From: Candidatus Zambryskiibacteriota bacterium
GTDB lineage: Bacteria > Patescibacteriota > Minisyncoccia > Phycocordibacterales > DATDWN01
Assembly (NCBI GenBank): GCA_003173855.1
Contig: PPGI01000010.1
Span: forward strand, 62,304 to 126,303
Direction of reading: 5' to 3'
DNA: 64,000 nucleotides
The number at the start of each line of letters is the position of its first letter. Position 1 is the first letter of the stretch. Under the pieces are notes generated by a model, which made no database searches, had not been told where the DNA came from, and saw only the letters and a program-made list of their open reading frames with translations. Below, piece by piece: positions 36,348 through 54,159 of this stretch. A program made the position numbers and the translations under genes.

Positions 36348-36916
36348 TATTTATGTTTCTTTTCTATGGAGTACAAGATTATAAAACTAATAAAGACAAT
36401 AAACAACCAAGCCCAAATAGCCATATCAAAAATCTTATCTTCACGTTTCTCGATTTCTCTTAAAGATCTTCCAGCCATTACAAAACCTGCATTATATGGA
36501 ACTACAACAATTGCACTGCGAACATTTTTTTGCGGTTGCCAAGTGACTAAATCTTCTCCATTTGCTTTTGCAGCCTCAAAGACACCTTTAGGAAGGGAAG
36601 GCAGGGTTCCATCGAGAACTCCAGTTCCAGTTAAAGCATTTCCGCCTCCATCATAAATTACAACATATGTAGCCAGACTTTTTGCGATGTCCGTTCTTAT
36701 GGAGCTTGAGAAATCTGTAATCTTTTGTCCGTCATTTAAGGAATTTACAATATCTTCAGCAATCTGAATTTGCGGATCATTTGCGCCAGCTCTAATCGAT
36801 TGTTGAACAGTTGCATATATTAATAGGCACAATATAAGAGAAATAATGGAAATAAGTACCCACCACCATCTGAAAAATTTTAATTTATGCATCAACATAG
36901 TATAACACAGGAGCAT
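36347..36916 (-). CDS. Hypothetical two-TM membrane protein
   Basis: N- and C-terminal TM helices flank a soluble domain. Confidence 0.45.
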   Translation of the reverse strand: MLLCYTMLMHKLKFFRWWWVLISIISLILCLLIYATVQQSIRAGANDPQIQIAEDIVNSLNDGQKITDFSSSIRTDIAKSLATYVVIYDGGGNALTGTGVLDGTLPSLPKGVFEAAKANGEDLVTWQPQKNVRSAIVVVPYNAGFVMAGRSLREIEKREDKIFDMAIWAWLFIVFISFIILYSIEKKHK

Positions 36917-36995
36917 TTCATAAATGGATTTATTAACCTCTATTTAACAACAAGTTCATTTTTTGTTTATATAATGTTGATAGATTGTTGATAAG

Positions 36996-37014
36996 TTTAA
37001 CAAAAATTTAACAA
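36996..37014 (+). promoter_or_regulatory. Direct repeat TTTAACAAAAA-TTTAACAAA (TTAACA with 11-bp phasing) upstream of a response regulator gene
   Basis: About 60 bp upstream of ATG 37073. Same half-site and phasing as the sites at 40261 and 52318. Confidence 0.4.
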
Positions 37015-37072
37015 ATAACCTTGCATTTTTTGATTGAAGATGCTATAAATTTTAACAATCTTTTTAAAAAAA

Positions 37073-37741
37073 ATGACTATTCTAATTGTTGAAGACGAAA
37101 AAAAGCTTGTCGATATTTTAAAGCGAGCCCTAAAAAGTGAACGTTATTCTGTAGATGTGGCTTACGATGGACTTGATGGTTTGTCTAAGGGCCTCAAAAA
37201 TAACTACAGCCTAATTATCCTCGACATTATGCTTCCAAAGAAAGATGGTTTTCAAGTCTGTAAGGAGTTGCGCGAGCATCAAATTCATACGCCTATTATT
37301 ATGCTTACTGCTAGAGGCAATACGGAAGACAGGGTCTCAGGACTTGATGTTGGCGCTGATGACTATTTAGTAAAACCATTTGGACTTGATGAATTGTTTG
37401 CAAGAATAAGAGCGGTTATGCGTCGACGAAAAACTACGGATGCTGATGTTAGAAAAGTATCTGACCTAATTTTGGATAAAAAGAAGCATGAAGTTACTAG
37501 AGGCGGCAAAGTGGTTGTTCTCACACCAAAAGAGTACAAACTTCTTGATGCCCTGATTACCCACGCAGGAGAAGCAATGAAGCGAAGGGAGCTAATTGAC
37601 TATGCTTGGGGTCCGTTATTTGAAGAATCAAACAATGAGCTTAACGTTCATATAAAATACTTACGAAATAAGATTGATGGGCCAAAAATGAAACCTCTAA
37701 TTCATACAATTCGCGGTGTCGGGTTTGTTCTTCGAGAATAA
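37073..37741 (+). CDS. OmpR-family response regulator
   Basis: Receiver domain (VEDE...LDIMLP...K) plus a winged-helix trans_reg_C domain. Confidence 0.85.
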   Translation: MTILIVEDEKKLVDILKRALKSERYSVDVAYDGLDGLSKGLKNNYSLIILDIMLPKKDGFQVCKELREHQIHTPIIMLTARGNTEDRVSGLDVGADDYLVKPFGLDELFARIRAVMRRRKTTDADVRKVSDLILDKKKHEVTRGGKVVVLTPKEYKLLDALITHAGEAMKRRELIDYAWGPLFEESNNELNVHIKYLRNKIDGPKMKPLIHTIRGVGFVLRE

Positions 37742-37797
37742 GTGGATAACTTTCTTGACAGCAAAAATTGTGTTACAATAGCTCCAGAGGAGGACCT

Positions 37798-38622
37798 ATG
37801 AGAAAGCTTAAGCTAGTGCAAGATACGACGCTTGGGCTCTTATTGGCCCAACAGGAAAACCTTAAAAACTTCTGGGATAAAAAAGTACGAGATCCATATG
37901 CCTTTGTCCCACATGAGTTGAAGGGTAAAATCAGTGAGGAGTTAGCTCGGGAAGAAAATGTAGCTCTTGGCCGATTTAGTACCGATTTTCTAAAAGAAGT
38001 CTTGAGGGATGTACGAGCCATAACAATCGAGAGACGACGAAACGAAAGAAATAAAATCGCTTCAATTGGTTATGGTTGTGGTTACGACAGTACAGGTGAA
38101 AATCGCTGGCTTAGATACGCAGCAGAAGCGAATCTAGAGACTGTTTGGATTGATGTCTCAGAGGTTGCTTACGCTGAAGCGTATCGGAAGCTACAAAAAG
38201 AGTACGTTGAACTTCAAGCAGAGAATACCTATTGCGGAGTAGCAAAACCTCAAATTATCTGTGGAGATATTCACAGAGTATTGTTTGAAGGTTTTGACTT
38301 CCCATTCAAACTCATTGAAATGTGGTATCTCTGCAGAATAGTTGGGTGTCTTTCAAAAAAAAGCGCGCCATTCGTTCTGCAGTCAATTGGAGAATCACTT
38401 TCAGTCGATTGCGACGAGTTCAATACACATCGGATTATTATCATAAACGCATTTCTTGATGATAATCCAAAGAGAGTTACCCAAACTAACACCTTGTACC
38501 GGAAGAGCTTGGTTTTAAAAAACCTTGAAGTCGGTGCAAATCGTCCTGTCGTTCCTTATGCTGAAGATACCTATCGCTACTTTGACCAGACCTATCGAGC
38601 GATAGCTATCAAGGCTAAATGA
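37798..38622 (+). CDS. Hypothetical protein, possibly a class I SAM-methyltransferase fold, inserted between RR and HK
   Basis: SD AGAGGAGG before ATG 37798. IGYGCGYD is glycine-rich and motif-I-like. GC is higher than the neighbours. Confidence 0.4.
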   Translation: MRKLKLVQDTTLGLLLAQQENLKNFWDKKVRDPYAFVPHELKGKISEELAREENVALGRFSTDFLKEVLRDVRAITIERRRNERNKIASIGYGCGYDSTGENRWLRYAAEANLETVWIDVSEVAYAEAYRKLQKEYVELQAENTYCGVAKPQIICGDIHRVLFEGFDFPFKLIEMWYLCRIVGCLSKKSAPFVLQSIGESLSVDCDEFNTHRIIIINAFLDDNPKRVTQTNTLYRKSLVLKNLEVGANRPVVPYAEDTYRYFDQTYRAIAIKAK

Positions 38623-38654
38623 TTGGCGGACACTCGTGCCCGCCAATTTATTTT

Positions 38655-40259
38655 ATGATTTCTGACAAAATAGCATTATTAAATCAAACAGTTCTAGAAT
38701 CTTTTAATGAAACAGATGAAAGAAAAATCATCGAAGCATTTAGCGAAGTTGGAATTAAAGTTTTGGAAGCAGATCACGCTTTCGTTTGGCTTAATTCATA
38801 CGCTTCACAGCATTTAGAATTGGTTTATACAAGCAAAAATTTACCATTTAAACCTAGAACACCGCGCGAAAAGGGAAGAAATTACAAGGCTTATTTAAGC
38901 GGGAAAGCAGATTTTGTAAGTGATGTCAGCAAAGTCGAAGATGCGAGCTATTTGAATAAATATATAAAAAGTTTTGTCATAATCCCAATTTGCTTTAGAG
39001 AGAAAATTTATGGGAATATAGTTTTTTGTTTTAAAAATAAGGAGCCATTTTTAGATGAGAAAAAAAGCCTGTGTTCTTTTATTGGTAATAGCTTAGCCCA
39101 AGCAATTACGATTAGAAGATTATTCGCTGGTGAGCAGGAAGCCAGAGCACTTTCTGAAAGGCATAAAGCATATTTTCAGGCACTAATTGAAAATAGCTAT
39201 GAAATCGAGATGCTAGTTGATAAAAACGGCATAATTTTATATAGCAGTCCATCAGTTAAAAACTTTTTTGGTCTAACAGTTAAACAAATAATAAATCATA
39301 ATATCAAAGAATTCATAAACAATAATGATTCTCAGAGCGTCACAAAATATCTAAAAAAAATACTTGAAAATCCTGGAGAAAATCATGTCAGAGAATTTTC
39401 TTATAAGAACAGAGATGGCATAATTAGAACTCTTGAATCCACTGGCTACAATATGCTCGATAATTTTAATGTTTCAGGAATTGTTATTAATATGCGAGAT
39501 ATTACATCGAGAAAAAGACTTGAAAGCGAAAAAGAAAGTCGACGATTATTATATGAGGAGAAAAAGAAAATTGAATTTATTGCTGAAGCGAATCACGAAC
39601 TTAGGACACCCTTAGCAATTATCAAGGGCAATGTCGATCTTATTTTGAGAGAAGCTGGTCCAAAAAGAAAAAGAAGGTATGCAGATGCCGCTCTTCGTCA
39701 AATTAATGCTGAGGTTAAACATTTAACGAATATTTTGTCGGATTTTTCGCTATTAACCACGCGAATCGAAGAATCTCCGTATAGAATTATCAAAAAGAAC
39801 GTGGCTTTAGACAAAATTATAAAGAGAGTTGTTAATAGATGTAAGATTATTGCTAGAAAGAAAAAAATTTCAATTAGAAAAAAACTTGCTGAAACGAATA
39901 TATTTGGTGATGCAAAATACCTCGATCGCCTTGTAATGAACTTAATTAAAAATGCTATTACATATGGCACTGAAAAAGGCTGGATTTTAGTAGAGATGTC
40001 AAAAAATGATGATCAAATCGTCTTAAAGGTTAGTGACAATGGTGTTGGCATAGGTGAGAATGATTTACCTTATATCTTTGAAAGATTTTATCGGGCTGAT
40101 AAGTCACATAGTGCGGAAGAGAAGAGAACCGGACTAGGATTGGCTATTTCAAAGTGGATTGTGGAAGCACATGGCGGCAAAATTGCTGTAGACAGCACCT
40201 TAGGCAAGGGGACGATTTTTACGGTTTCTCTTCCTACGAAGGGTCTAGAAACTGTCTAG
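38655..40259 (+). CDS. Soluble sensor histidine kinase (GAF-like + PAS + HisKA + HATPase)
   Basis: H-box NHELRTPL and N, G1, G2 boxes. No TM helices. The alternative start at 38619 overlaps the upstream stop. Confidence 0.8.
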   Translation: MISDKIALLNQTVLESFNETDERKIIEAFSEVGIKVLEADHAFVWLNSYASQHLELVYTSKNLPFKPRTPREKGRNYKAYLSGKADFVSDVSKVEDASYLNKYIKSFVIIPICFREKIYGNIVFCFKNKEPFLDEKKSLCSFIGNSLAQAITIRRLFAGEQEARALSERHKAYFQALIENSYEIEMLVDKNGIILYSSPSVKNFFGLTVKQIINHNIKEFINNNDSQSVTKYLKKILENPGENHVREFSYKNRDGIIRTLESTGYNMLDNFNVSGIVINMRDITSRKRLESEKESRRLLYEEKKKIEFIAEANHELRTPLAIIKGNVDLILREAGPKRKRRYADAALRQINAEVKHLTNILSDFSLLTTRIEESPYRIIKKNVALDKIIKRVVNRCKIIARKKKISIRKKLAETNIFGDAKYLDRLVMNLIKNAITYGTEKGWILVEMSKNDDQIVLKVSDNGVGIGENDLPYIFERFYRADKSHSAEEKRTGLGLAISKWIVEAHGGKIAVDSTLGKGTIFTVSLPTKGLETV

Positions 40260-40260
40260 T

Positions 40261-40292
40261 TTATTAAGAACTTATTAACAGTTTATTAACAA
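40261..40292 (+). promoter_or_regulatory. Three tandem 11-bp repeats TTATTAAGAAC / TTATTAACAGT / TTATTAACAA
   Basis: Immediately after the HK stop and about 125 bp upstream of the next HK gene. Confidence 0.45.
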
Positions 40293-40416
40293 TTTTTCCT
40301 TCATCAATAGGGAAGTATCTTTTGACAGTAACAAATTATTAAGATAAGATTAAATTTGTCATTTAAAAATTTAAATAATTTTTTCATGAAGAGGTTCGAT
40401 ATCAAAAAAAATACCT

Positions 40417-41511
40417 ATGATCAACAACTCGAGAATAAATCGGAGTCAAGGGATATTACAGGACGAAAAATTATTACGTTTACTTTTTGATAATACAAAC
40501 GAGCATGCAATCTGCATAATTACAAATAATGGGATCATTCGAACTTGGAATAAAAGTGCCGAAAAACTGCTTGGATTCAGCGCTGAAAATATAATTGGAA
40601 AAAATTATTCAATTCTATTTTCAAAAGAAGGTATAAAAAAAAGATTGCCCAAGAAACTTATTGCTGAGGCATCTCGAAAAGAAATCTCACGATCAGAAAA
40701 TGTTTGCGTACGAAAAGACAACACCTTTTTTTGGGGAAGCCTTTGTGTAACACCAATAAAAAATGGGTCTCGCCCGCATAATTTTGTCTTAATTATGCAA
40801 AATATTTCTGAAAAAAAAGAAATTGAACGTCAGAAAGACGAATATATTGGAATTGCTTCCCATGAATTAAAAACTCCAGTAGCCGCACTTTCACTATATT
40901 CTGAACTTTTAGCTGATAGATTAAAAACTGAGCATGATAAAAAAACTCTTCAATTATTTAATGATATGAAAGCTCAAGTCAGCAGGATGGTGAACTTGAT
41001 TGATGATTTGTTGGTTGTTAGTGAAATTGAGCGGAACAAATTGTCGCTAAATATCAAATCATTTAATATAAATCAGTTAATTAGAAAGGTTATTCATGAT
41101 TTTCAGACATCAACAATGACTCACAATGTGATTGTTGATGGAAAAGCCAAGGGAAATGTTTCAGGTGACCCAAATAGAATTACCCAAGTTCTGGTAAATT
41201 TAATAGCCAATGGCATTAAGTATTCTCCTCAAGCCAATAAAATATTAATTAAAATTACTAATGAAAAAAAGAAATTGATTGTCTCTGTTCAAGATTTTGG
41301 ACAGGGTATTACATTGCGAGAGCAACGTGACATTTTTAGACGTTATTTTCGATCATATAGCCTTGAAAAGGGGAATATTCCTGGATTAGGTCTTGGTTTG
41401 TATATTTCAAAAAAAATAATTGATAATCATGGCGAAAGAATTTGGGTTAGATCCCAGAGGGGAAGAGGTTCTGTGTTTTCTTTTTCATTAAGTTACGGAG
41501 CAAAACGATAG
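40417..41511 (+). CDS. Soluble PAS-domain sensor histidine kinase
   Basis: PAS followed by H-box SHELKTP and an HATPase_c domain. Confidence 0.8.
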   Translation: MINNSRINRSQGILQDEKLLRLLFDNTNEHAICIITNNGIIRTWNKSAEKLLGFSAENIIGKNYSILFSKEGIKKRLPKKLIAEASRKEISRSENVCVRKDNTFFWGSLCVTPIKNGSRPHNFVLIMQNISEKKEIERQKDEYIGIASHELKTPVAALSLYSELLADRLKTEHDKKTLQLFNDMKAQVSRMVNLIDDLLVVSEIERNKLSLNIKSFNINQLIRKVIHDFQTSTMTHNVIVDGKAKGNVSGDPNRITQVLVNLIANGIKYSPQANKILIKITNEKKKLIVSVQDFGQGITLREQRDIFRRYFRSYSLEKGNIPGLGLGLYISKKIIDNHGERIWVRSQRGRGSVFSFSLSYGAKR

Positions 41512-42167
41512 CCAAGGCCTCGTACGGTTTCAAGCAAGTGGTCACTGTTTCCAATGCCCAGTTTGCGTCTCAAATTTTTTACATGCACATCAACAACGTT
41601 GGAAAAAGATGAATAATTGAAATCCCATAAATGTGTTAATAATTCTTCGCGATTAACAACTTTGTGTGGATGTCTCATAAAATATTCTAGAAGGACAAAT
41701 TCCTTAAGAGTTAGTGAGAGTGATTTTCCACGTCGAGTAACGATATGCTTTACCGGATCGAGACTAATGTCCGAAACATTTAAAACTGAAGGAATGCTCT
41801 CTGGCGGACGCCTCAATATTGCACGAATTCGGGCTGTGAGTTCATCAAATGAAAATGGTTTTACCAGATAATCATCAGCACCCGAAAGAAGCAAATTGAC
41901 TTTTCTATCAGTTTCGCCATGCGCAGTTAAAATAAGAATTGGAGTGGTAATGCTAGTCTCCCGCATTTTTTTTGTAATCGACAGCCCGTCTTGACCTGGC
42001 AAAGTTAAATCAAGAATTATCAAATCATAATCCATGTGGTTTAATGAAATTCTCTTAAGGGCTGTTTCTCCATCATGAATAATATCCACTGCGTAGCCTT
42101 GTTTTACAAGACCTTCCATTAGGGCATCGGCAATACTTTTATCATCTTCTACGACAAGTATTCTCAT
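41493..42167 (-). CDS. OmpR-family response regulator
   Basis: Receiver and winged-helix domains. Convergent with, and overlapping, the upstream HK. Confidence 0.85.
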   Translation of the reverse strand: MRILVVEDDKSIADALMEGLVKQGYAVDIIHDGETALKRISLNHMDYDLIILDLTLPGQDGLSITKKMRETSITTPILILTAHGETDRKVNLLLSGADDYLVKPFSFDELTARIRAILRRPPESIPSVLNVSDISLDPVKHIVTRRGKSLSLTLKEFVLLEYFMRHPHKVVNREELLTHLWDFNYSSFSNVVDVHVKNLRRKLGIGNSDHLLETVRGLGYRFAP

Positions 42168-42250
42168 AATTTAAATATAATTTTAATATAAACTTAATTA
42201 TATGCAAGCAGGATGAAGGGTTCATGAAGTTTATCTGAAATTAAAACACT

Positions 42251-42277
42251 CCTGTTAGGGAGTGTTTTAATTTTTAA
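42251..42277. terminator. Terminator hairpin (AAAACACTCC tgtta GGGAGTGTTTT)
   Basis: Perfect stem with T-tracts on both strands. Confidence 0.45.
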
Positions 42278-42296
42278 TTAGATTTTTAATTTTAAC

Positions 42297-44180
42297 TTAG
42301 AAATGACATGTATCGGCACATGAACCAGTTGGAGTAAGCCCTGTCATAGTTTTATAGTGATCAGCAATTTCAGCTTCTGTGAGTAAACGATTGTATATCG
42401 CAACCTTTCCTATTGCCCCTTTGAACCATGTTTCTAGGGCCATTGTCCCAATGTTTAATGGAGAATTGTTTGAAGTTGGGATAATTTTGTACTGACTCAT
42501 ACATCCAGTTGGCATGTGATTTGCCATGCTCCACTTAATACCGTTAACCCAGATGTTTATTGAACCTGGATAAGCAGTTTGGCATCCCGTAGGTGTAGTT
42601 ATTGTCTCGTATTCTCCCACAACATGAATCCAACCTCCCTGTTTAATGAGACCAGAAATTGGTTGCCAATCTGCAGCAGAACCTAATCCTGCACTTGGAT
42701 TAAAGACATAAGCACTAATTCTATTCGTTCTTCCTTCAGGGTTATTTGTGCTATACATTCTAGATTCCCATTCACATGTTGGTCCATAGTCTTCACATTT
42801 ACCCATAAAGTCGATGTATCCATATCCACTGTCATTTGCAAATTGCAACGTATCAGGTCTTATCCATGCTTCCCATGTTAATTGATGAGTTGTTGGAATT
42901 GATAAACTTGAATTTGAAGGCACTTGAAGATACTCACTTGAACCATTGAAGTCTGCAGCATTGTCACCGTTTGGTAATTTAGCAGATAGCGGTGCACCAC
43001 CTTGGTATGTTCCGTTATTTCCATGTCCTGATTTGTCACTTTCGCTGGTACCTGGAGTAGCCATAGTAAGATACATTACAGGATTTCCAGCAAGAATAAT
43101 TGAGTCGTAACTTGAAGATGAAGGTGCAGGAATTGGAGTTGGTGATGGAGTTGGCGAAGGTGTAGGACTTGGAGTCGGAGAAAGAGTTGGAAATGGTGTC
43201 GGGCTTGGCGTTGGAGCAGGTGTTGGTACAGGAGAAGGAGTTGGAGTAGGGACTGGAGCTGGAGCGACAGCGAGAACAATTTGTGATGGTTTTGTCACAT
43301 TGAAGTTATCTAGCGAGATATCCATGAAATCAGATCTAATTCCAGTTAATCCGCTAGAAGTAATTTTTGAACTTGTAGAACCATTATCAATTGCTTGAAT
43401 TGCAAGTGTCCAATTACCTGAACCATTTTGATCTACATATAGATCTACATGAACATTTCCATTAAGATCGGTATAAGTAGAGTTTCTAATTCTCATCCAA
43501 GTATTTTTTGGAAGAACATCTGGATTTGTTGTTGAGTTGTATGTTCCAGAGAAAAATGGCTTTTCAGCAAGTGTGTAATATGCGCCATTTATTTTTTTCT
43601 TAACAATTACATGTCCATCAACACGAATACCAGTATAATAGAAATTTCCGTTTTGCATTCGGCTGATTAGAAAGATTCCATTCCATGGATTTCTGTTAAC
43701 TGAATTCGACAGATTGTCTTTGTTAATTTTTACTGATATCCAAGAATCAGAGTCAGTTTGAGGTTGCCTCAAAAGTAAAGAGAAGCTATTTTGCGGATGT
43801 AATCCCTGATCGCTTCCAATCGGATTTGAGTTTAAGTATTTTAGATACCAAGGATTTGAGCCTAAAATATCACCCTGCAAGCTTTGGCCTATTCCTCCAT
43901 TAACAAGAAGCTGCCCTCCTGATGAAATCCACCAGTAAGGACTTCCTGATCCATCGGGAGTACCGACTTCATTTAATGTGCCAGGAGCGCTGAAAGTGTA
44001 ATTCCAAGGAAGACTAATAGAAGCAGCAACAGATGCTCCAAATGCGCTTAGGGGTAAAAAGAGTAGGATTCCTAGAGCTAGACCTGCCAAAAATACAAGA
44101 TTTCTTAATAATTTGTATTTTTTCGCGGGGTTTTCTAGAGCGATTGCACGACTCTTTGATTCATTATGGCTGTAATTCAT
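42297..44180 (-). CDS. Secreted multi-domain protein: lectin/LamG-like domain, Pro/Thr/Ser linker, C-terminal beta-rich domain
   Basis: N-terminal TM/signal. The [11 protein letters not shown]...GLHPQN domain is paralogous to the 46337-47203 gene. PTPSPTP linker. Confidence 0.5.
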
Positions 44181-44431
44181 TTATATGTTATTTAATTTAT
44201 TAATACCTTCGAGTAATCCCAAAGGTATAAACAATTTTAGATAGCCAAATTTTGAATCTCAATAAGAAAACTGATTTAACAATATTTAATCTTTTTATTC
44301 ATGAAGAGAAAAATTTTATACTTGAAAAATAAGGCTGTTTTAAAATTTGATTTAAAAATTTCATTTTGACTTCAATATAAATTAATTAAGTCTTCATTAA
44401 ATACCACATTAAATTTCTTCATAATCAAAAA

Positions 44432-44460
44432 CCCCAGAAATCTGGGGTTTTTGAAACTGA
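44432..44460. terminator. Terminator hairpin (AAAACCCCAGA ttt CTGGGGTTTTT)
   Basis: Perfect stem. Serves the upstream minus-strand CE4 gene. Confidence 0.5.
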
Positions 44461-44473
44461 CGTTTTATCGAGT

Positions 44474-46306
44474 TTACTGCAAGGATTGAATTCCTTGGGA
44501 GACAGTAACAACTGGAACACCTTTAGTAACTAGATAATCAACAATTTGATTAAATATTGCCGGGGTAGTGCTAAATTGATTTCCGCTGTTATTAACTTCG
44601 TGTATTGCAAGGATAAGCCAGGTTTTATTGGCTGCAGCCTGGTCAATCCAAGCTTTTACTTGAGCAAAAGTTATATTAGAAGTTACGCCTTCACGCTCAA
44701 GCTGATATCTGTCTGATGTCGGAGTAACGAATCCATCAAGTGTTGCCACGGCATTATTAAAGCCAGCATCTTTAACAATTTGAATAGTTATTGAATCGTA
44801 GTCACCATATGGATAAGCAAACGACGTTATTGGCCCGACATTTAATGCGAGCAAATCATTTCTTGAACCCTGGATTTCAGTTTGTTGGTCAGCAGGAGAA
44901 AGTTGTGTTAGGAAAGGGTGAGTTTGGGTGTGCGCGCCGATTTCATTTCCCATTGCATAAATTTGTTTGATTTGACTTTTACTCATGAAGTCTGGAAAGC
45001 CATCGTCCGCAGTTTGCCTACTAACAATATAGAATGTTCCATTTACTCCAGCCGACTGCATTTTTGGAATGGCATTTTGGAATTGTGACAGCCAACCATC
45101 ATCGAATCTAAGAGTGACTGCTCCAGTCGAGAATACTCCGGAAACTCCAGATTTTTTAACAACGGAAACATTATCAATTGTTAAACTACCAACGCCTTCT
45201 ATTAGATGAAAGACAGTTACACTTTTAACCGCTTGGCTAACGCTGAAATCGACATTCTTTGTAGTTGGAGTACTTGCTGCTGGAAGACTAGCAATATCCT
45301 TATAGGTAATTGTTCCGTCATTGTTAATGAACTGGACAGTGATCAAACTTGAAATATTCGATTTATATGTATCAGAGTAAGTATAAATTCCTTGAGTTAC
45401 AGGAACTGGATCAAACCACCATTTAGCATCTCCAGTTGTAAAAGATGTGACGTTTATTGTTGCAGAATTTCCGCTGCCAAGTGAGGTTCCGGGATAAACA
45501 AATTGTCTAGTGTTTGTGCCCCAGCCACCTTTGTTCCAACCTTGCGGCAATCCGTTTGAACCCGGAGTTTCAAAATTACCGTTTGAAACAAGATTACCGT
45601 CAGAGCTCGTTGTCGTAATTTTATTTAAGGAGAAATCATCAATTGATAGGCTTCCGTTTGATTCGATCAAGTGAAAAACTGTTAACGAAACTACATTAGC
45701 TGGAACAGTAAAGGTTACATTATTTTGTTGGTAAGTTGAACTTGGATTAATAAATGCAACATCTTTATATACAAATGTACCATCACTCAGTTTGAATCTG
45801 ACATCAATTACTGTCGGTACATTTGAAAGTGAATAATCAGATAATTGGTAATTATCTCCCGGTGAAACTGCGACATCATCGAAGTACCATTTTGCGTCTC
45901 CGCTTACAAAATTTGTAATAGTTACTTGAGCAGCCTTAGTATCAGTGTTGCCATTCACAGGGTAAGTAAATGTTCGCGTGTTGCTGCCATAACCGCCCTT
46001 GTTCCAATTTGCTGGACCGCCAGTCGTTGTTGTGTTTTGAAAGCTTGGATTTGGAACAAGATTTGGTCCAAGTGTCTGGTTTGATACAGCTTGAGTTTGA
46101 AGTGTTGACGAAGTATTTTGAGTAGTAAGTTTTGATTGATTAGTTGATAATGGAGTGATCGGGTTGTTTAACCGTGATTTTCTTACTTCGGGAGTTGAAC
46201 TGCCTTCAACTTTTGGAGACTTTGCTCCCAGGGCAGTTTGTCCAGAAATAAGAGCAAACAAAAGCAGTACGCTCAACATTATATTTTTTTTATTTTTCTT
46301 AATCAT
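44474..46306 (-). CDS. Secreted polysaccharide deacetylase (CE4/NodB) with two N-terminal carbohydrate-binding-like repeats
   Basis: Repeats GDAKWYFDDVAVSPG and GDAKWWFDPVPV. C-terminal TLRFDDG...HTQTHP NodB motifs. Confidence 0.65.
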   Translation of the reverse strand: MIKKNKKNIMLSVLLLFALISGQTALGAKSPKVEGSSTPEVRKSRLNNPITPLSTNQSKLTTQNTSSTLQTQAVSNQTLGPNLVPNPSFQNTTTTGGPANWNKGGYGSNTRTFTYPVNGNTDTKAAQVTITNFVSGDAKWYFDDVAVSPGDNYQLSDYSLSNVPTVIDVRFKLSDGTFVYKDVAFINPSSTYQQNNVTFTVPANVVSLTVFHLIESNGSLSIDDFSLNKITTTSSDGNLVSNGNFETPGSNGLPQGWNKGGWGTNTRQFVYPGTSLGSGNSATINVTSFTTGDAKWWFDPVPVTQGIYTYSDTYKSNISSLITVQFINNDGTITYKDIASLPAASTPTTKNVDFSVSQAVKSVTVFHLIEGVGSLTIDNVSVVKKSGVSGVFSTGAVTLRFDDGWLSQFQNAIPKMQSAGVNGTFYIVSRQTADDGFPDFMSKSQIKQIYAMGNEIGAHTQTHPFLTQLSPADQQTEIQGSRNDLLALNVGPITSFAYPYGDYDSITIQIVKDAGFNNAVATLDGFVTPTSDRYQLEREGVTSNITFAQVKAWIDQAAANKTWLILAIHEVNNSGNQFSTTPAIFNQIVDYLVTKGVPVVTVSQGIQSLQ

Positions 46307-46336
46307 ATTTTTTTATTAGATTATTAATGGTTAGCT

Positions 46337-47203
46337 CTATGGGGACATAGCGCTAAAATTTTTAAATTTAACATCCATAAAATCAGTTCGAATTCCAACA
46401 TTTCCGGATGAGACTATAGGTTTTGTACCTGATAAAGTTTCGGAATCAACTACATCTAAAACCAATTTCCATTCGCCAGAATCAGTAAAATCAATAAAAA
46501 ATTGAAGTTCAACTTTTGTTGGGTCAATATTTTTAGCAATTAATTTTTCACCAATCCATTTTTGTGTTGGTAATAAAATTGGATTTGAATAATGATCGTA
46601 ATTTTTATTATCAATAAATGTGCTTGAGGCCAAAGTTGTATAAACTCCATTTATTTTTTTCTTGATTACAGCTGTACCGTCAACACGCATCCCGGCATAA
46701 TAAAGATTATCTCCATCTAAATATCGGCTCATAAGTAATACGCCATTCGACATATTACGGTTTGGGCTTCTACTTAAGTGATAATTCTCAATTTGAAAAA
46801 ATAATGATACGTCAACATCTCCCCAGACTTCTGTATTAATCAATCTAAAAATATTTTGCGGGTGAAGACCTTGGTCCGTATCCACAGGATTATTTTTTCT
46901 GTAAAGTGTTTTCCAAGGTGATTGAGCCGGAATGTCATTTTGTAATGTTTGTCCTATGCCATCTTCAACATAAAAAATTCCACCTGAATTTAACCACCAG
47001 CAATGTTCCCACGAATCATTTTTTGCATCCGATTCTTCTAAAACCCCCTCGGTAAATTGATTGCAATTTTCTGGGATGTTTGATGATCCTCCAGAATAAA
47101 GAATTTTTCTCGATGGAAATCCAAAGAGGGACAGAATATAATAAATCCCAATAATTTGAGCGAAGAGTATAAAGAAAGTTTTTGATGCAATTAATGAGTT
47201 CAT
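46337..47203 (-). CDS. Secreted lectin/LamG-like protein (paralog of the 42297 N-terminal domain)
   Basis: WWLNSGG...GLHPQNIF...GMRVDGTAVIKKKINGVYTTLA aligns with the 627-aa protein. Confidence 0.5.
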   Translation of the reverse strand: MNSLIASKTFFILFAQIIGIYYILSLFGFPSRKILYSGGSSNIPENCNQFTEGVLEESDAKNDSWEHCWWLNSGGIFYVEDGIGQTLQNDIPAQSPWKTLYRKNNPVDTDQGLHPQNIFRLINTEVWGDVDVSLFFQIENYHLSRSPNRNMSNGVLLMSRYLDGDNLYYAGMRVDGTAVIKKKINGVYTTLASSTFIDNKNYDHYSNPILLPTQKWIGEKLIAKNIDPTKVELQFFIDFTDSGEWKLVLDVVDSETLSGTKPIVSSGNVGIRTDFMDVKFKNFSAMSP

Positions 47204-48789
47204 GGCTCGATTGCTTTAACTGTTAAGTTATCAATTTCAACTTGGCTGTTTCCTGGAGTTGCATCCCAAGTTTTAATTCCAATTCCGCCGTGTGACAATG
47301 ATGGATCAAGAAAATCTGTCTGGGTAATCACGTTGCCATTAATTAGGCATTGGACACTACGGGCAACAACCCGCATGCCAATTCTGAATTGACTTTGGCC
47401 AGGATTATATGAATTGGTATTTCCAGCAATCACTCGATCCTCGCCATTTTTCACTTGTTCAATGTGGACAAGATCGTTCTTAAAATTGCATGCTGTTAAA
47501 TTTTTATCATCTGCATATCGAGAAGAGAGATAAATATTATTTCCTTTAATCCAACGAACTTGTGCGCTAATTTCATAGTCAGTCCAATCATCAGTTCCAT
47601 CGAGGACAACCGTGCTTCCTGTTCCATCGGGTAGGGCACTAATAACCATTTTGTTATTTTCCAAAGTCATTGTTCCCCAGTTCGTGTTAATCCAGCCGTC
47701 AACATTGGTAAAATTAGCGGAAAATGGCAAGGTTTTTGCTTGGCCAGAATTAAATTCCTTAATCAGATCGTTTCCTGACCAATGAGGAGAAATTCCGATT
47801 CTCTTGATCATAAATGAATTTTGACTAGGAGTTAGCGGATAATTTTGACTATATCGGTAATTGTTCGAATATTGATAAAAATTAAGTGGGTAAATATTTT
47901 CTGCTATTGGTACTATAGTTTTTTCAGCATCAGGAAAATTTACTGTCGAATATCCATAATCTCCAAATGGAAAGGCGAAAGCTATAATTGGTTTGCCAAA
48001 TGTTTCCTGAAGATTTATTTTTGATTGCAATAGATCATTTCTTGTTCTGTCACTAAATTCTGAAACTGACTCAACTCTTCCAAAATTTGAAAGCCATAAT
48101 TTGTTTGAGAAAAAATGTCCCTTATTACCTTGATCATCAATAAAATAATTTGAGTGTGATGAATATCCATGAGACTGTATCTCCCACTCATTGGTACTTG
48201 CCATTTTTTTGAGCTCATCGAGAGACAAATAATAATTGCTTGTTCCTTCAAGTGAATATTTATCAATGACAAACATTACGGCATGATAATCAAGCGAACG
48301 CAAAATTGGATCAGCAGGGTAGTAGCTGTCTTTTCGACCATCATCAAAAGTCAAAAGAAATGATTTTGGGGGGAGTTTTTTTGTGCCTTGCATGAAATCA
48401 TAAAAATCTTGCATTGTAATAGTTTGCCAACCATTTTCTTTAAGTGTTTTCATCTGATCCCAAAATGTTGCGAGATCAATATTTGTCGCTTCTCCTTCGT
48501 TGTCAGAAGTTGCTGGTCCACCAAGCACCCCGTGGTAGAGAAGTACTGGAATTGATCGAGCATATTGTTCGGTCGTGGTTGAATCACCCATAACGTGTCC
48601 GGAAATGACCATTTCCTTCAAGTTGTAGGGGATAACATAAGAATATGATTTAAGATAATAGGATTTGTAATTGGCAAACAAGTGTTCATTTTGAAAGTAA
48701 ATAAACATGCCAATTCCAAATATGGCAATAATCGTAAAACTCCAGAGAATTTTTTTATTTAATCCGGTTGATGTTGCAAAATAAACCAT
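47200..48789 (-). CDS. Membrane-anchored polysaccharide deacetylase (CE4) with a C-terminal beta-sandwich domain
   Basis: LLYHGV and LTFDDGRKDSYY NodB motifs. N-terminal TM. Confidence 0.6.
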   Translation of the reverse strand: MVYFATSTGLNKKILWSFTIIAIFGIGMFIYFQNEHLFANYKSYYLKSYSYVIPYNLKEMVISGHVMGDSTTTEQYARSIPVLLYHGVLGGPATSDNEGEATNIDLATFWDQMKTLKENGWQTITMQDFYDFMQGTKKLPPKSFLLTFDDGRKDSYYPADPILRSLDYHAVMFVIDKYSLEGTSNYYLSLDELKKMASTNEWEIQSHGYSSHSNYFIDDQGNKGHFFSNKLWLSNFGRVESVSEFSDRTRNDLLQSKINLQETFGKPIIAFAFPFGDYGYSTVNFPDAEKTIVPIAENIYPLNFYQYSNNYRYSQNYPLTPSQNSFMIKRIGISPHWSGNDLIKEFNSGQAKTLPFSANFTNVDGWINTNWGTMTLENNKMVISALPDGTGSTVVLDGTDDWTDYEISAQVRWIKGNNIYLSSRYADDKNLTACNFKNDLVHIEQVKNGEDRVIAGNTNSYNPGQSQFRIGMRVVARSVQCLINGNVITQTDFLDPSLSHGGIGIKTWDATPGNSQVEIDNLTVKAIEP

Positions 48790-48798
48790 AATTTTTGA

Positions 48799-50163
48799 TT
48801 AACGTGTGCCCCAGCGGCTGTCACGGATTTTTAAAATGGCGTACGGCAATTGCCATGCAAGAATCAAACTATAGAATGCTGTGGAAACTGAACCAGAAAG
48901 CCAGCGATTGTCTCCGGTGTATCGGTAATAGTAAAGACCGTAGATTAATGTCATTAAGAGTAAGCCGCTGAAATAATAAAGAGGAACAATTCCGCTATTA
49001 ACTGGGTGCCAAATTAAGGTTCGAATGAGAACAAATGGAGCAAGAAGTGGCAAGATAAATCCAAGATAAAACGAAAGACTCATTAGTAAATTTTTTCTCC
49101 ACATGAAAAAACATGCCATAAAACTTTCTCTGAACCATGATTTTTTCCAGCGAAGCTGTTGTTTCATATAGACTTTGAAATTGTCTGGAACAAAAGTGTG
49201 AGCGATTGAATCAGGAGCAAAAACAGTGTCAAATCCATGTTTCAGCACCCGATTGGTAAGACTTCGGTCATCACCATATGTACATTTGACCCCGAGAAAT
49301 TTTTGGTTTGTCCATTCATCAAGCATTGGTAAAATTACTGATCTTCTGTAAGCAGCAAGACATCCAGAGCAGCAAGTTACTGAACCAAAAAGAGCTTCAG
49401 CAGATTTGTAAGCTTTAAAAGCTACGTAATAACGGACTGATTGCATTCGAGTCAAAAAATTTGTTTCGGCATTTGCTACAAGTGCTTGGCCAGCGACTGC
49501 ACCGACGTTCGGCAGAGAAAAATATTTGACCATCGTTTTAAGAGCTTCCGGTTCAATAAAACTATCTGAATCGACAAACAAAATAATTTCTTTATCAGAA
49601 ATTCTGGTACATTCCGCCATCCCATCTCTTTTCCCGCGATTTATTTTCCAATCAACAACGATTACGTTCACGCCTTCAAGTGCTGCTAGGCGCTTTGCTT
49701 CATTCATTTCCTCGAGAGTGTTGTCAGTTGAACCGTCATTAATGGCGATAATGTCGAATTTATCTTTTGGGTAATTTGCTCTTGTCATTCGCATTATAGT
49801 TTCTCTTATGTGCTCACCTTCGTTTTTTGACGGCACAGCAAAGGAAACTGTCGGTTCGTAGTTCGGATCAAAAGAAGTTTCAGTGGGTGAATAAAAATAT
49901 GACAGAGCAAAACGAGAAATAACATAAGAGGCTACCATTAAGCTATAGCCAAAAAATATTATCTGGCCTTGCATCCATTGGATAGACAAAATTTTTATTA
50001 TCATTACTGAAAAAATCAAAACGTAGAAAACCACTGCAGCAAATGCTCTTGTTTTTGCTTTTCTATCAATTCGCGTATTTGCGAGGGCAATATTATTATT
50101 TGCAATTGTGTAACTCATTTTTTTATCGGCCAATTCCTTTGTAAGAGACCTGAGAATCTTCAA
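48799..50163 (-). CDS. Processive family-2 glycosyltransferase (PgaC/IcaA/cellulose-synthase-like)
   Basis: INDGSTDNT and VDSDSF DxD motifs, QQLRWKKSW (QxxRW). Multiple TM helices flank the catalytic domain. Confidence 0.75.
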   Translation of the reverse strand: MKILRSLTKELADKKMSYTIANNNIALANTRIDRKAKTRAFAAVVFYVLIFSVMIIKILSIQWMQGQIIFFGYSLMVASYVISRFALSYFYSPTETSFDPNYEPTVSFAVPSKNEGEHIRETIMRMTRANYPKDKFDIIAINDGSTDNTLEEMNEAKRLAALEGVNVIVVDWKINRGKRDGMAECTRISDKEIILFVDSDSFIEPEALKTMVKYFSLPNVGAVAGQALVANAETNFLTRMQSVRYYVAFKAYKSAEALFGSVTCCSGCLAAYRRSVILPMLDEWTNQKFLGVKCTYGDDRSLTNRVLKHGFDTVFAPDSIAHTFVPDNFKVYMKQQLRWKKSWFRESFMACFFMWRKNLLMSLSFYLGFILPLLAPFVLIRTLIWHPVNSGIVPLYYFSGLLLMTLIYGLYYYRYTGDNRWLSGSVSTAFYSLILAWQLPYAILKIRDSRWGTR

Positions 50164-51601
50164 AGATTTTTTTGTTTAAGCAATTTCGACCATCAATGAC
50201 TACTTGAATTCCATATTCACTAAGAAACTTTGGATTTAAAGTTAAAAATTCTCTATGAGCTGTTGCGATAATAATTGCCACAGCTCCAGTTAAGCTTTCG
50301 TCTAAGTTATTTGAGACAATTTCTTTCTTGACATATGGGTCGTACATATCAACATCAAAACCGTTTTGCCTCAATTCTTTATAAATTTCAAAAGATGGGC
50401 TTTCTCGAACATCAGAAATATCAGGCTTGTAAGATGCTCCAAGAACAACCACTTTTCCTTTCTCAATACCTCGTTTTTTTAATTCACGCTTTAGAAGTTT
50501 TATCGTATAACTCGGCATGTAGTTATTGATTTCTCGAGCTTGCATCAAAAATTTGTGTTCAAAACCATTTTTCTTTGCGTGCTCGATTAAGTAATACGGA
50601 TCAACAGGGATGCAGTGGCCGCCCACACCGCAACCTGGATAGTGAGCAAGAAAACTAAATGGTTTTGTCGATGCTCCACGAATTACGTTTACAATATCTA
50701 TACCTAAAACTTCAAATGACATTGCCAATTCATTTACAAAAGCAATGTTGATATCACGAAATGAATTTTCAACAATTTTGACTGCTTCAGCTTCTTTAAT
50801 GGAAGCCATCGGAGTTACTTTTCCTTTGCCTAAGATGCTTCGGTAAAACACTAAAGTTTTTCTAAGGCCTCTCTCATTTAAACTGCCTACAACACGGTTA
50901 ATATTTTCTAATGTCCAAGTGCTGTCGCCAGGATTAATTCGTTCTGGACAATGGGATAAATCAAAATCAATTCCTGCTTTTAATCCTGAACTTTTTTCTA
51001 AAATTGGAAGAACAATTGATTCACAAACACCTGGATTAACTGTTGATTCAATTATTACGAGATCTCCCGGTTTCAATTCTTTTGCAACACTTTTTGATGC
51101 TTCTATTAAAGGAACGAAGTCAGGTTTTGAATTCTCATCGATTGGGGTAGGGACGCAAACAATAATTATTTCTGATTCTCTTAAAAAAATAGGATTAGAA
51201 TTAACAAACAATTTGTTCTTTTTAAGAGAGTATCCAATTTTTTCGTCAACGAAAGGAGAGATTTGCCTTCGAATTAACTCTACTTTTTCTTCGTCAGTGT
51301 CTATTCCGATAACAGAATATCCATTTTCTTTTGCTAAAAGCGCTAAGGGCAAGCCAACATATCCTAAGCCGACAATAGCTACATTCTTATTTTTTACACC
51401 CTCTCTATTTCTTTGCTCCTTATCTTCTAAATTTAAATTTTTTTCGTAAGTCTCATGAATATTAAAATCTTTTATCTCAATCCCTTCGTTCTTTGTTGTT
51501 ACAGTATTCATTTTATTTTTTGTTAAATATTTATTAAAATTTCTCTCAGTATAAAGAAAAAAGATAAAGAATTTATGAAGCATTTGTAAGATTTTCTTCA
51601 T
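50123..51601 (-). CDS. UDP-sugar 6-dehydrogenase family (UDP-GlcNAc/ManNAc or UDP-glucose dehydrogenase)
   Basis: NAD-binding VAIVGLGYVGLPLA and catalytic GGHCIPVDP. The true start may be an internal codon, since the N-terminal ~70 aa are atypical. Confidence 0.7.
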   Translation of the reverse strand: MKKILQMLHKFFIFFLYTERNFNKYLTKNKMNTVTTKNEGIEIKDFNIHETYEKNLNLEDKEQRNREGVKNKNVAIVGLGYVGLPLALLAKENGYSVIGIDTDEEKVELIRRQISPFVDEKIGYSLKKNKLFVNSNPIFLRESEIIIVCVPTPIDENSKPDFVPLIEASKSVAKELKPGDLVIIESTVNPGVCESIVLPILEKSSGLKAGIDFDLSHCPERINPGDSTWTLENINRVVGSLNERGLRKTLVFYRSILGKGKVTPMASIKEAEAVKIVENSFRDINIAFVNELAMSFEVLGIDIVNVIRGASTKPFSFLAHYPGCGVGGHCIPVDPYYLIEHAKKNGFEHKFLMQAREINNYMPSYTIKLLKRELKKRGIEKGKVVVLGASYKPDISDVRESPSFEIYKELRQNGFDVDMYDPYVKKEIVSNNLDESLTGAVAIIIATAHREFLTLNPKFLSEYGIQVVIDGRNCLNKKIFEDSQVSYKGIGR

Positions 51602-51635
51602 CAGTTCGTCATGTTATCTGTGGCACACTGGATAT

Positions 51636-52280
51636 ATGAAAATCTTAATAATTGAAAATGATGAACATTTTCAAAATCTTTTGAAAAAAAATTTTGAATC
51701 CCATGGATTCACTGCAGAAATTGCAAAAACTCGAGAGGAAGGAATAAAATATATAGAAAACAATGAAGAAATTAATCTAATTATTCTTGATTTGTTTTCT
51801 GAAGAGGGAATATCAGCAGAAGTTTTTTGTAAAAAAATAAAATCAACAAATTTAAATCTACCAATTCTTGTTTTAAGTAAAGAATATGAAATGGTAGACG
51901 TAATGAAGGTCCTTGAAAATGGAGCCGATGACTATCTAGTCAAGCCTTTTTCAATTGATGAATTGATATCCAAGGCAGAAGGCATGCTTATGGTAAAAAA
52001 AGAGAATAATGAGGAAACAAAAGATGAAAAGAATGAAGTTGTCATCGAAGACATTCATTTAACTCCAAAGGAGGAAGCAATTTTTAACTTTCTTGCCCAT
52101 CATCCAAATGAAGTTTTATCTCGAGACACTATATTTGAGAATGTTTGGACATTTGATTCACGATCCATATCGAATGTAATTGATGTCCATATGAAGAATC
52201 TGCGCAAAAAATTTAAGCGCTCAGGAAAAAAGAATGTGATAGAGACAGTTTGGGGGCTAGGGTACAGGTTTTCAAGGTAA
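51636..52280 (+). CDS. OmpR-family response regulator, divergent from the EPS operon
   Basis: Receiver domain with a long acidic linker, then a winged helix. Confidence 0.75.
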   Translation: MKILIIENDEHFQNLLKKNFESHGFTAEIAKTREEGIKYIENNEEINLIILDLFSEEGISAEVFCKKIKSTNLNLPILVLSKEYEMVDVMKVLENGADDYLVKPFSIDELISKAEGMLMVKKENNEETKDEKNEVVIEDIHLTPKEEAIFNFLAHHPNEVLSRDTIFENVWTFDSRSISNVIDVHMKNLRKKFKRSGKKNVIETVWGLGYRFSR

Positions 52281-52317
52281 AAAGCTCTTCATAAATTGAA
52301 TATTAAATTATAATTAA

Positions 52318-52339
52318 TTATTAACAGGTTATTAACAGG
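52318..52339 (+). promoter_or_regulatory. Tandem 11-bp repeats TTATTAACAGG x2
   Basis: Directly after the RR stop and about 100 bp upstream of the 52441 gene. Confidence 0.45.
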
Positions 52340-52440
52340 TTATCCCTAAAAAATAATTTGACTTCGAAAATTTTTTAAAATAGCATATTAATATTAGATT
52401 AAAAAATCTAATGTAAAAAATTAAAAAATAATTAAAAAAT

Positions 52441-52707
52441 ATGTTAAAGAGAATACAATCAAAAGCACAAAGTTGGGTATCGAATCACAATAAAAGATTA
52501 GGAGATGCAAAAAGCCTGCGCAGGTTAACAATGTGTAAAAAATGTTTTACATTTTATTATAAAAATTCTTGGCACTTTGAAAAACCTGCATATCTTGAAA
52601 CAGAGGACGAGAGGGAAATTCCAGTTAGATTCACTCAGTGTCCTGCATGTTTAGAGCAGGAAATGTCATTTTATGAGATGGAATCTGATTTAGCATTAGG
52701 TTTTTAA
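52441..52707 (+). CDS. Hypothetical Zn-ribbon-like protein (CKKC...CPAC)
   Basis: 88 aa with four Cys in two CxxC pairs. Confidence 0.45.
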   Translation: MLKRIQSKAQSWVSNHNKRLGDAKSLRRLTMCKKCFTFYYKNSWHFEKPAYLETEDEREIPVRFTQCPACLEQEMSFYEMESDLALGF

Positions 52708-52721
52708 ATTAATAAAAATAT

Positions 52722-52871: not shown

Positions 52872-52938
52872 ATTCAAATCTCCTAGAAAAAACACCAGTC
52901 GTCATGGTGTTTTTTCGTGCTTTCTATATAATAATTAG

Positions 52939-54062: not shown

Positions 54063-54159
54063 ATTTTCCTTTAAATCTCTTATACACCATAACTTTTTCG
54101 TCACTGGAATATTTTTCTGCTGAAAATTTCCTCGCACTCGCCTCTACACGGGCTCCGTG

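Follow-up and report, generated by a model that had tools for sequence, protein, structure and literature searches.

Three phased TTAACA repeat sites in a Zambryskiibacteriota genome are probable copies of a composite promoter-operator module associated with a conserved two-component system of Parcubacteria

Three groups of short, phased direct repeats built around the hexamer TTAACA are the subject of this work, together with RR1-HK1, the OmpR/PhoB-family two-component system whose operon lies between the first two of them. They are found in a 64,000-nucleotide stretch of DNA from a Candidatus Zambryskiibacteriota bacterium (contig PPGI01000010.1, positions 62,304 to 126,303 of the forward strand), hereafter called the window. 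An earlier note on this DNA had placed them at 36996 (TTTAACAAAAA-TTTAACAAA), 40261 (TTATTAAGAAC-TTATTAACAGT-TTATTAACAA) and 52318 (TTATTAACAGG-TTATTAACAGG-TTAT...), and at all three coordinates the repeats are present. The genes on which the argument turns are as follows.

37073-37741, + strand: RR1, an OmpR/PhoB-family response regulator (Pfam Response_reg and Trans_reg_C)
37768-38622, + strand: conserved protein between RR1 and HK1, with neither a Pfam match nor a transmembrane segment
38619-40259, + strand: HK1, a soluble GAF-PAS-HisKA-HATPase histidine kinase, partner of RR1
40417-41511, + strand: HK2, a soluble PAS histidine kinase, downstream of the predicted site 2 promoter
41493-42167, - strand: RR2, convergent with HK2
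51636-52280, + strand: RR3
52441-52707, + strand: ZN88, gene for an 88-aa CxxC...CxxC Zn-ribbon protein

The earlier note proposed a motif search, with background frequency and no intergenic enrichment as the outcome that would speak against it; run on the 64-kb window, the search gave the opposite result. The exact pattern TTAACA-N5-TTAACA occurs three times (starts 36997, 40275 and 52321, all on the + strand), where dinucleotide shuffles predict 0.01 occurrences, and all three pairs fall within the 7.7 kb of intergenic DNA, for which shuffles of that DNA only predict 0.001. Among same-strand TTAACA pairs lying within 45 bp of each other, a spacing of 11 is seen three times and spacings of 13, 25, 27 and 44 once each. 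The relaxed pattern TTAAY-N6-TTAAY has 15 matches; although 88% of the window is coding, 14 are intergenic. Tandem Repeats Finder (TRF) reports 11-bp arrays at 36963-36993, 40261-40292, 42166-42198 and 52318-52343. The repeats are direct, head-to-tail rather than inverted, every exact pair lying on one strand, and their units are spaced by 11 bp, about one helical turn, at all sites and in orthologous loci alike, as in OmpR/PhoB operators. The proposed OmpR/PhoB-type anatomy therefore stands, comprising 11-bp head-to-tail repeats in promoter regions adjoining genes for OmpR-family regulators.

RR1 is itself a bona fide member of the OmpR/PhoB winged-helix family, by its Pfam domains and by its closest solved relatives in the PDB (DrrD, M. 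tuberculosis PhoP, RegX3, PrrA, BasR/PmrA, MtrA and KdpE). Its nearest relatives, at 74-84% identity, come from Zambryskibacteria, Nomurabacteria and 'Paceibacterota', which places the window within Parcubacteria, and RR1 is unusually conserved in that group. Against curated equivalog models both RR1 and HK1 score below the cut-off of every named system; the best of these models are CopR/HprR/MtrA/PmrA/PhoB for RR1 and PnpS/PhoR/WalK for HK1. No transmembrane segment was found in HK1, HK2 or the protein encoded between RR1 and HK1, a gene slot that is also filled in two relatives (L178 and L181).

Conservation was assessed in 83 orthologous loci with an RR1 of at least 60% identity, obtained by exact look-ups of RR1 homologs and by a metagenome scan with a degenerate DNA pattern for NNELNVHI, the RR1-specific recognition-helix peptide; every comparison locus was thereby selected for containing RR1. 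As a negative control we used 1.3 Mb of unrelated DNA, including other OmpR-regulator loci and other phyla of the Candidate Phyla Radiation (CPR); control loci L001-L080 were retrieved with the back-translated generic OmpR peptide DDYLVKPF and encode regulators 41-48% identical to RR1. Across the orthologous loci the sites resolve into two kinds of repeat that point in opposite directions within one module: a class 1 repeat, TTAAYA (phylum consensus TTAATA-N5-TTAATA), and a class 2 repeat, TTATNNACA, present in two or three units. In the lineage of the window the variable dinucleotide of class 2 is TA, which gives TTAACA on one strand and TTAATA on the other, and a single motif was therefore seen at all three sites in the earlier reading. 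A single motif merging both classes was rejected, because no more than TTA/TAA is common to them, a match without significance in AT-rich DNA.

Site 1, upstream of RR1, contains both classes, with five units (starts 36964, 36975, 36986, 36997 and 37008) in one 11-bp register.

36964-36994, - strand: distal half, three class 2 units (starts 36964, 36975 and 36986), a TTATNNACA array whose units read TGTTTATAT, TGTTGATAG and TGTTGATAA on the + strand and ..TATAAACA, CTATCAACA and TTATCAACA on the - strand
36997-37013, + strand: proximal half, class 1 pair TTAACA-N5-TTAACA, in phase with the distal units
37021-37049, + strand: predicted RR1 promoter, with -35 TTGCAT at 37021-37026, a 17-nt spacer and -10 TATAAA at 37044-37049
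36933-36949, + strand: a weaker pair, TTAACCtctatTTAACA, a one-mismatch match 64 bp upstream of site 1

The class 1 pair stops 7 nt short of the predicted -35, and orthologous promoters share the layout: two or three units of TGTNNATAA, then TTAATA-N5-TTAATA, 5-7 nt, TTGCAA, 17 nt and (TG)nTATAAT. Among 63 distinct orthologous RR1 upstream regions, 47 carry TTAAY-N6-TTAAY within 75 nt of the -35 (in shuffles 0.42 on average and never more than 2), with a second hexamer that in most cases begins 10-13 nt before the -35, and 30 carry TGTNNATAA, against 2.75 in shuffles. A profile of the RR1 promoter built from 47 other genomes, with the window left out, finds 36968-37048 at E = 4.4e-8, the next match having E = 0.12; a consensus promoter scan did not detect this promoter, because its -10 is TATAAA. 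The distal half (TRF period 11, 2.8 copies) aligns to positions 1-49 of the module profile described below, at E = 0.016. Site 1 thus has the features expected of a conserved promoter/operator through which RR1 would regulate its own expression. It keeps only the repeat half of the outward-facing part of the module, consistent with the absence of any ECF (extracytoplasmic function) sigma homolog from the window, and the pair at 36933 may be what is left, in degenerate form, of the downstream ATTAAA-N5-ATTAAAT pair that once belonged to a divergent promoter, since lost. In most RR1 orthologs (loci L083-L177) the -10 hexamer ends 6-10 nt before the ATG, a short distance that implies a leaderless RR1 mRNA (predicted); in the window this distance is 23 nt.

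Sites 2 and 3 carry the outward version of the module: three TTATNNACA units, a TTGACT-type -35, a -10 and an ATTAAA-N5-ATTAAAT pair.

40261-40291, + strand: site 2, three phased units TTATTAAGA, TTATTAACA and TTATTAACA, beginning 2 nt past the HK1 stop codon
40322-40355, + strand: predicted site 2 promoter, facing HK2, with -35 TTGACA at 40322-40327 and -10 TAAGAT at 40345-40350
52302-52318, + strand: site 3 upstream pair ATTAAA-N5-ATTAAT, which is class 1 on the opposite strand and forms the first block of the module consensus
52318-52348, + strand: site 3, three phased units TTATTAACA, TTATTAACA and TTATCCCTA
52358-52404, + strand: predicted site 3 promoter, with -35 TTGACT at 52358-52363 and -10 TAGCAT at 52381-52386

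At both sites the arrays lie 9-30 nt upstream of the -35 and a second pair lies at -10/+1: ATTAAG-N5-ATTAAAT (40338-40355) overlaps the site 2 -10, and ATTAAT-N5-ATTAAA (52387-52404) directly follows the site 3 -10. All three sites thus occupy operator positions in predicted promoters, site 1 by abutting the -35. Predicted transcription starts lie near 37056, 40357 and 52393. The upstream half of the outward version is, when reverse complemented, the distal plus proximal half of the RR1 promoter, in that ATTAAA-N5-ATTAAA becomes TTTAAT-N5-TTTAAT and TTATNNACA becomes TGTNNATAA; in two loci (L118 and L171) a single copy of the module serves a divergent RR1 and ZN88.

The earlier note had attached site 3 to the RR3 locus, but the site travels with ZN88 whatever gene lies upstream, and RR3 lies upstream only in the window. 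Promoters of ZN88 orthologs have TTATAAACAgtTTATAAACAnnTTATnCCC at the position equivalent to site 3, and 13 of them share one layout, with which window positions 52302-52404 agree unit for unit: ATTAAA-N5-ATTAAA, g, TTATAAACAgt TTATAAACAnn TTATnCCC and about 20 nt, followed by TTGACT, 17 nt, TAnAAT and ATTAAA-N5-ATTAAAT. ZN88 homologs were found in 15 loci (14 besides the window), almost all of them beside the RR1-HK operon: the gene comes straight after the RR1-linked kinase in about 10, follows RR1 in one (L098) and is divergent from RR1 in L118 and L171. We therefore assign site 3 to ZN88, the adjacency of RR3 being incidental. ZN88 homologs occur only in Patescibacteria, where they are listed as hypothetical proteins, with CxxC...CxxC and WH as invariant residues; ZN88 belongs to no Pfam or NCBIfam family, and its AlphaFold model (pLDDT 73.7), a zinc ribbon between two helices, matched no PDB fold at E <= 0.001.

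Site 2 is likewise a copy of the module at a conserved position, the 3' boundary of the RR1-HK1 operon; where other genomes have the module at this post-HK1 position, it is predicted to drive either an ECF sigma gene or the gene for the Zn-ribbon protein. L178-L180, the nearest relatives with shared synteny (RR1 82% identical), retain the -35 of site 2 and its downstream pair, as well as the first two repeat units. The -35 and the pair were matched to those of L178 by eye, as the pairwise MAFFT alignment of the HK1-HK2 spacer is poor past the first 25 nt.

When the window was searched with a module profile made from 32 sequences of other genomes only (search space 128 kb), the best matches were 52312-52403 (+; E = 4.2e-8) and 40269-40355 (+; E = 3e-5), followed by 37012-36964 (-; E = 0.016), which covers the repeat half of the module only; the fourth-best match had E = 6. 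Since profiles from other genomes pick out these three places, the three sites first noticed are the three module instances of the window. In 588 kb of RR1 loci, nhmmer found 48 matches to the module profile, whereas the 1.3 Mb of control DNA yielded none. Over 34 modules, conservation of TTGAC and of the downstream pair exceeds 90%. The module is found upstream of RR1 and divergent from it in 32 of 61 loci; in 16 of 35 it comes immediately behind the kinase gene. Downstream of the 48 matches lie genes for ECF sigma factors (19), ZN88 (14), a secreted family of about 200 aa (5), PAS proteins (2) and, in single cases, DUF5670, YggT-like, class A penicillin-binding protein (PBP) and HK2; in L181 the module precedes genes for a 66-aa membrane protein and a GT2 (family 2 glycosyltransferase) synthase. 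In 15 of 44 loci an ECF sigma gene lies behind the module, divergent from RR1; its product is about 170 aa long, has Sigma70_r2/r4_2 domains and scores above the TIGR02937 cut-off.

This conservation in the orthologous loci of many other Parcubacteria indicates that the sites are functional cis-elements that belong together, although not as three equivalent operators, one for each two-component system. It also bears on the suggestion that the repeats are no operators at all, being either recent slippage duplications (11-bp minisatellites) or phased AT-rich DNA acting through curvature or in the manner of an UP element. Site 3 does contain two identical 11-mers (TRF match 100%), and the repeat sequences are AT-rich, but the same architecture recurs in dozens of genomes at fixed distances from the -35, the spacers diverge while TTAA, TTAT and ACA are more than 90% conserved, and shuffles that preserve composition yield essentially none; we regard this explanation as very improbable.

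On balance, we think it reasonably likely that all three sites represent, within the window, one composite promoter-operator module, found throughout Parcubacteria and associated with RR1-HK1, and that phosphorylated RR1 is what binds it. RR1 is the parsimonious binder because the module flanks the RR1 operon in dozens of genomes and because both the recognition helix of RR1 and the repeats are nearly invariant. On the repeats, phosphorylated RR1 would form head-to-tail dimers or oligomers, in the manner of PhoB, SphR, PmrA and WalR. The class 1 pair set against the RR1 -35 would serve autoregulation, probably positive, since a pair abutting the -35 has the geometry of an activating site. The class 2 array of an outward promoter precedes a T-rich stretch and, by 10-25 nt, the TTGACT -35, and would be suited to upstream activation, while the reversed class 1 pair over -10/+1 occupies a position typical of a repressor operator. 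Such promoters would drive ECF sigma, ZN88 or envelope-related genes in other genomes, and HK2 (site 2) and ZN88 (site 3) in the window.

Several observations weigh against one RR1-bound module. It is not obvious that the two classes represent a single motif, and the same protein may therefore fail to bind both. In many orthologs the RR1-proximal class 2 unit is a perfect copy of the DnaA-box consensus, TTATCCACA, and single TTATCCACA boxes stand beside housekeeping promoters in the window, at 7703 and 10043. RR2 and RR3, encoded close to sites 2 and 3 and with a common recognition helix unlike that of RR1, are possible binders too, and the third unit of site 2, TTATTAACA, is not conserved in L178-L180. 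Moreover, all loci were chosen for RR1, so the association of module and RR1 is not comparable with a genome-wide frequency.

Some of these points favour an arrangement with two factors, in which RR1 would bind class 1 pairs only, for autoregulation and as operators at -10/+1 of the outward promoters, and the TTATNNACA array would be bound by DnaA, which would read it as TTATCCACA 9-mers with 2-bp gaps, or by a second OmpR-type regulator of the RR2/RR3 kind. The classes differ in sequence and run in opposite orientation, class 1 pairs without class 2 occur at RR2 and at the LamG-domain gene listed below, and RR2 and RR3 have a common helix, SNV[VI]DVH[VM]KNLR, where RR1 has NNELNVHIKYLRNK. About 20 orthologs have precisely TTATCCACA as the unit closest to RR1, and isolated CTGTGGATAA(G/C) boxes lie directly against the -35 in two promoters of the window, those upstream of rpoB and of the nusG/ribosomal-protein cluster; these units and boxes make a second class 2 factor a serious rival. 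However, units of the window and of ZN88 promoters (TTATTAACA, TTATAAACA and TTATCAACA) have no C where TTATNCACA has one at position 6, the array keeps to the boundaries of the RR1-HK operon, a strict 11-bp head-to-tail array beside a -35 is classic OmpR/PhoB geometry, and RR2/RR3-type genes were not seen near most modules, in loci that are short. We hold this arrangement to be doubtful, at about one chance in a few, and regard binding of both classes by RR1 as the better account.

The model in the earlier note was that RR1, RR2 and RR3 each bind the TTAACA repeats at their own loci and form a cross-regulated regulon that may take in the exopolysaccharide (EPS) locus through a site at 44277. 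Sites 2 and 3 are indeed at most a few hundred bp away from HK2/RR2 and RR3, a class-1-like pair is found at the RR2 promoter and another before the start of the UDP-glucose dehydrogenase gene (51521), and the module of L181 precedes a GT2 operon. But across genomes it is ZN88 rather than RR3 that site 3 accompanies, site 2 stands at the position behind HK1 where modules are conserved, and the recognition helix of RR1 is unlike that of RR2 and RR3, for whose binding to the repeats the comparison of loci gave no evidence. The EPS site fares no better as a pair: TTAACAATATTTAATC is present at 44277-44293, in a block partly conserved with L178 (TATTGTTAAATCA), but both profiles score the pair as noise (E > 4) and its first hexamer is AATAAG in L178, and we reject it as a phased site. 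A regulon of three cross-acting regulators is accordingly improbable, and we return to RR1 as the more plausible binder, noting that the second two-component system and envelope or EPS genes may be linked through other sites.

Candidates for such sites, with the neighbouring genes, are listed here.

36347-36916, - strand: membrane protein gene
42182-42198, - strand: class-1-like pair ATTAAG-N5-ATTAAA (+ strand reading TTAATATAAACTTAAT), with a TATAAT -10 on one side and the ATG of RR2 on the other
42297-44180, - strand: LamG-domain protein gene
44381-44413, - strand: TTTAAT-N6-TTTAAT-N6-TTAAT array upstream of the LamG-domain gene, a weak candidate
44474-51601, - strand: polysaccharide operon (two deacetylases, GT2 and UDP-glucose dehydrogenase)
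51521-51537, - strand: weak pair TTAATAAATATTTAACA, 9 nt before the probable UDP-glucose dehydrogenase start
52722-52868, + strand: DUF5670 open reading frame (ORF)
52939-53508, + strand: DedA/VTT protein gene

The pair at RR2 (at 42183) is the third-best match to the RR1-promoter profile, a weak one (E = 0.37), and a similar pair is found in L178. The LamG array forms a block conserved between the window and L178 with diverged flanks; the module profiles did not detect it. The Rossmann domain of UDP-glucose dehydrogenase begins only at residue 73 of the listed ORF (start 51601), whose true start therefore probably lies further downstream; a start at the ATG at 51511 would give a divergent intergenic region of 124 nt with RR3, holding TTAATAAATATTTAACA.

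Further features of these loci may be noted. The 3' ends of HK2 (+) and RR2 (-) overlap by 19 nt (41493-41511), an arrangement unusual for a kinase/regulator pair; the two genes are convergent in L178 as well. The LamG-domain gene contains an 18/36-bp tandem repeat (43121-43250) that encodes a proline-rich region, with a weak Pfam Trypan_PARP match. The DUF5670 ORF, too short for the 60-aa limit of the ORF list, encodes a 49-aa membrane protein directly after ZN88 and is 79% identical to a 49-aa ORF after the L103 module. A G+C-rich hairpin stands between promoter and start codon in some module-driven leaders, namely those of the L105 and L108 ZN88 orthologs and of L181 (L105, ccccgctgtggcgggg; L181, 7535-7560, ccctcgaaaaacaggg), and is absent from the window copy; it may be an attenuator or another RNA element. 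Rfam covariance models run over 36000-53500 gave only one match, PsrR1, whose 24 bits (E = 0.92) fall short of the gathering score, 42; this match is noise, and we reject a known RNA element there. G+C content is 0.47 at 26001-28000 and 0.44-0.50 at 54001-58000, the rest of the window being at 0.30-0.41. In L084, genes for bAvd and a reverse transcriptase (RVT_1) lie side by side at 4657-6042, about 4 kb upstream of RR1, and are followed by a MazEF pair; the first two are the signature of a diversity-generating retroelement.

Members of the CPR, or Patescibacteria, have tiny genomes and are reported to possess only about five two-component systems (PMC7137472), and a literature search found no paper on a regulon or operator in Parcubacteria. 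The module offers a concrete sequence code that can be put to the test by computation and biochemistry without culturing. It would allow targets of the most conserved signalling system of Parcubacteria to be predicted from metagenomes, among them ECF sigma factors, a lineage-specific Zn-ribbon protein and membrane, secreted and cell-wall proteins. As a more tentative extension, which we think possible but unlikely, RR1-HK1 would be a phylum-wide bidirectional hub whose composite operator controls the system itself, the ECF sigma factor, the Zn-ribbon protein and the envelope, with the TTATCCACA units as a second input, possibly through DnaA. If so, units of this type would couple an envelope circuit to replication or growth, and an uncultured CPR lineage would for the first time have a defined regulon and cis-regulatory code.

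The nearest parallels lie among known direct-repeat operators. The PmrA/BasR box is YTTAAK-N5-YTTAAK, bound by a head-to-tail dimer on direct repeats (structure 4S04). The class 1 consensus cTTAATa-N4-TTAATa is nearly this box, and BasR is among the closest solved relatives of RR1; however, RR1 scores 196 against a cut-off of 330, has another recognition helix and belongs to unrelated biology, the PmrA system acting in lipopolysaccharide modification in Proteobacteria.

Tandem repeats of 8 bp + 3 bp are bound by PhoB, and at least three CTTAACCT units with 3-bp linkers by SphR (PMC1906773). The module resembles the Pho boxes of E. coli PhoB and Synechocystis SphR (consensus CTGTCATA or CTTAACCT) in its 11-bp head-to-tail period, which matches an 8-bp unit plus a 3-bp linker, in its position at or near the -35 and in its winged-helix regulator. 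The TTAAC core is shared with the SphR box, matching 5-7 of the 8 positions of CTTAACCT, and the best curated matches of HK1 include PnpS/PhoR-type kinases, below cut-off. In contrast, RR1 scores 194.6 bits against the PhoB cut-off of 296.2 (TIGR02154), HK1 is a soluble GAF-PAS kinase with no transmembrane segment, and the targets of the module are ECF sigma, Zn-ribbon and envelope proteins. Behind the module there is no pst, phoA or phoU gene, and the ABC transporter nearby is of the nitrate/sulfonate/taurine type rather than Pst; on these grounds, and by the score of RR1, we reject a Pho regulon.

In Streptomyces coelicolor the OmpR-family system CseBC, encoded beside the ECF sigma gene sigE, controls transcription of that gene according to the state of the envelope (PMC8999054), and the ECF sigma gene divergent from RR1 behind the module in Parcubacteria recalls this pairing. 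RR1 differs in scoring 166 against the CseB cut-off of 350, in its cytoplasmic kinase and, in the window, in having no ECF sigma homolog for a partner.

The class 2 array is also like an array of DnaA boxes, being composed of TTATNNACA 9-mers in one orientation with 2-bp gaps, one unit of which is exactly TTATCCACA in many orthologs; upstream of RR1 in other Parcubacteria, TTATCCACA is the most conserved unit. Many orthologous RR1-proximal units match TTATNCACA, but the window units TTATTAACA, TTATCAACA and TTATTAAGA do not, the first two lacking C6, and the window matches TTATNCACA only at 7703 and 10043. Unlike DnaA-box arrays at an origin, those of the module lie at a fixed distance from promoters flanking a two-component operon. 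The only perfect TTATCCACA 9-mers in the window, read as CTGTGGATAA(G/C) or its complement, are at 7703-7711 (+) and 10043-10051 (-), each only a few nt away from the -35 of what looks like a strong promoter, that of the nusG/ribosomal-protein cluster and that of rpoB (10269-13487), respectively.

The operator of WalR (YycF, VicR) of Firmicutes is TGTWAH-N5-TGTWAH, hexamer-N5-hexamer (PMC9210968), and has the form TGTHH-N6-WGTNDD in S. aureus (PMC10746227). On the - strand, the window repeat TGTTAA-N5-TGTTAA fits the former exactly, the phylum consensus forms TGTTTA and TGTGGA each deviating at one position, and the commonest phylum form, TGTTTATAAnnTGTTTA, fits the latter. RR1-HK1 resembles WalRK further in being the most conserved two-component system of its clade, in having a PAS kinase and in the envelope-related genes (PBP, GT2, membrane and secreted proteins) that stand behind its module. 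It differs in scores (RR1 171.9 bits against the YycF cut-off of 340, HK1 180.6 against the WalK cut-off of 725), in a kinase with neither membrane anchor nor extracellular domain, and in lacking yycHIJ genes; no autolysin genes were seen behind the module, and a composite bidirectional module is not described for WalR. In kind, the module is an ordinary OmpR-type direct-repeat operator, and, should the hub proposed above prove real, it would be analogous to WalRK of Firmicutes, yet independent of it.

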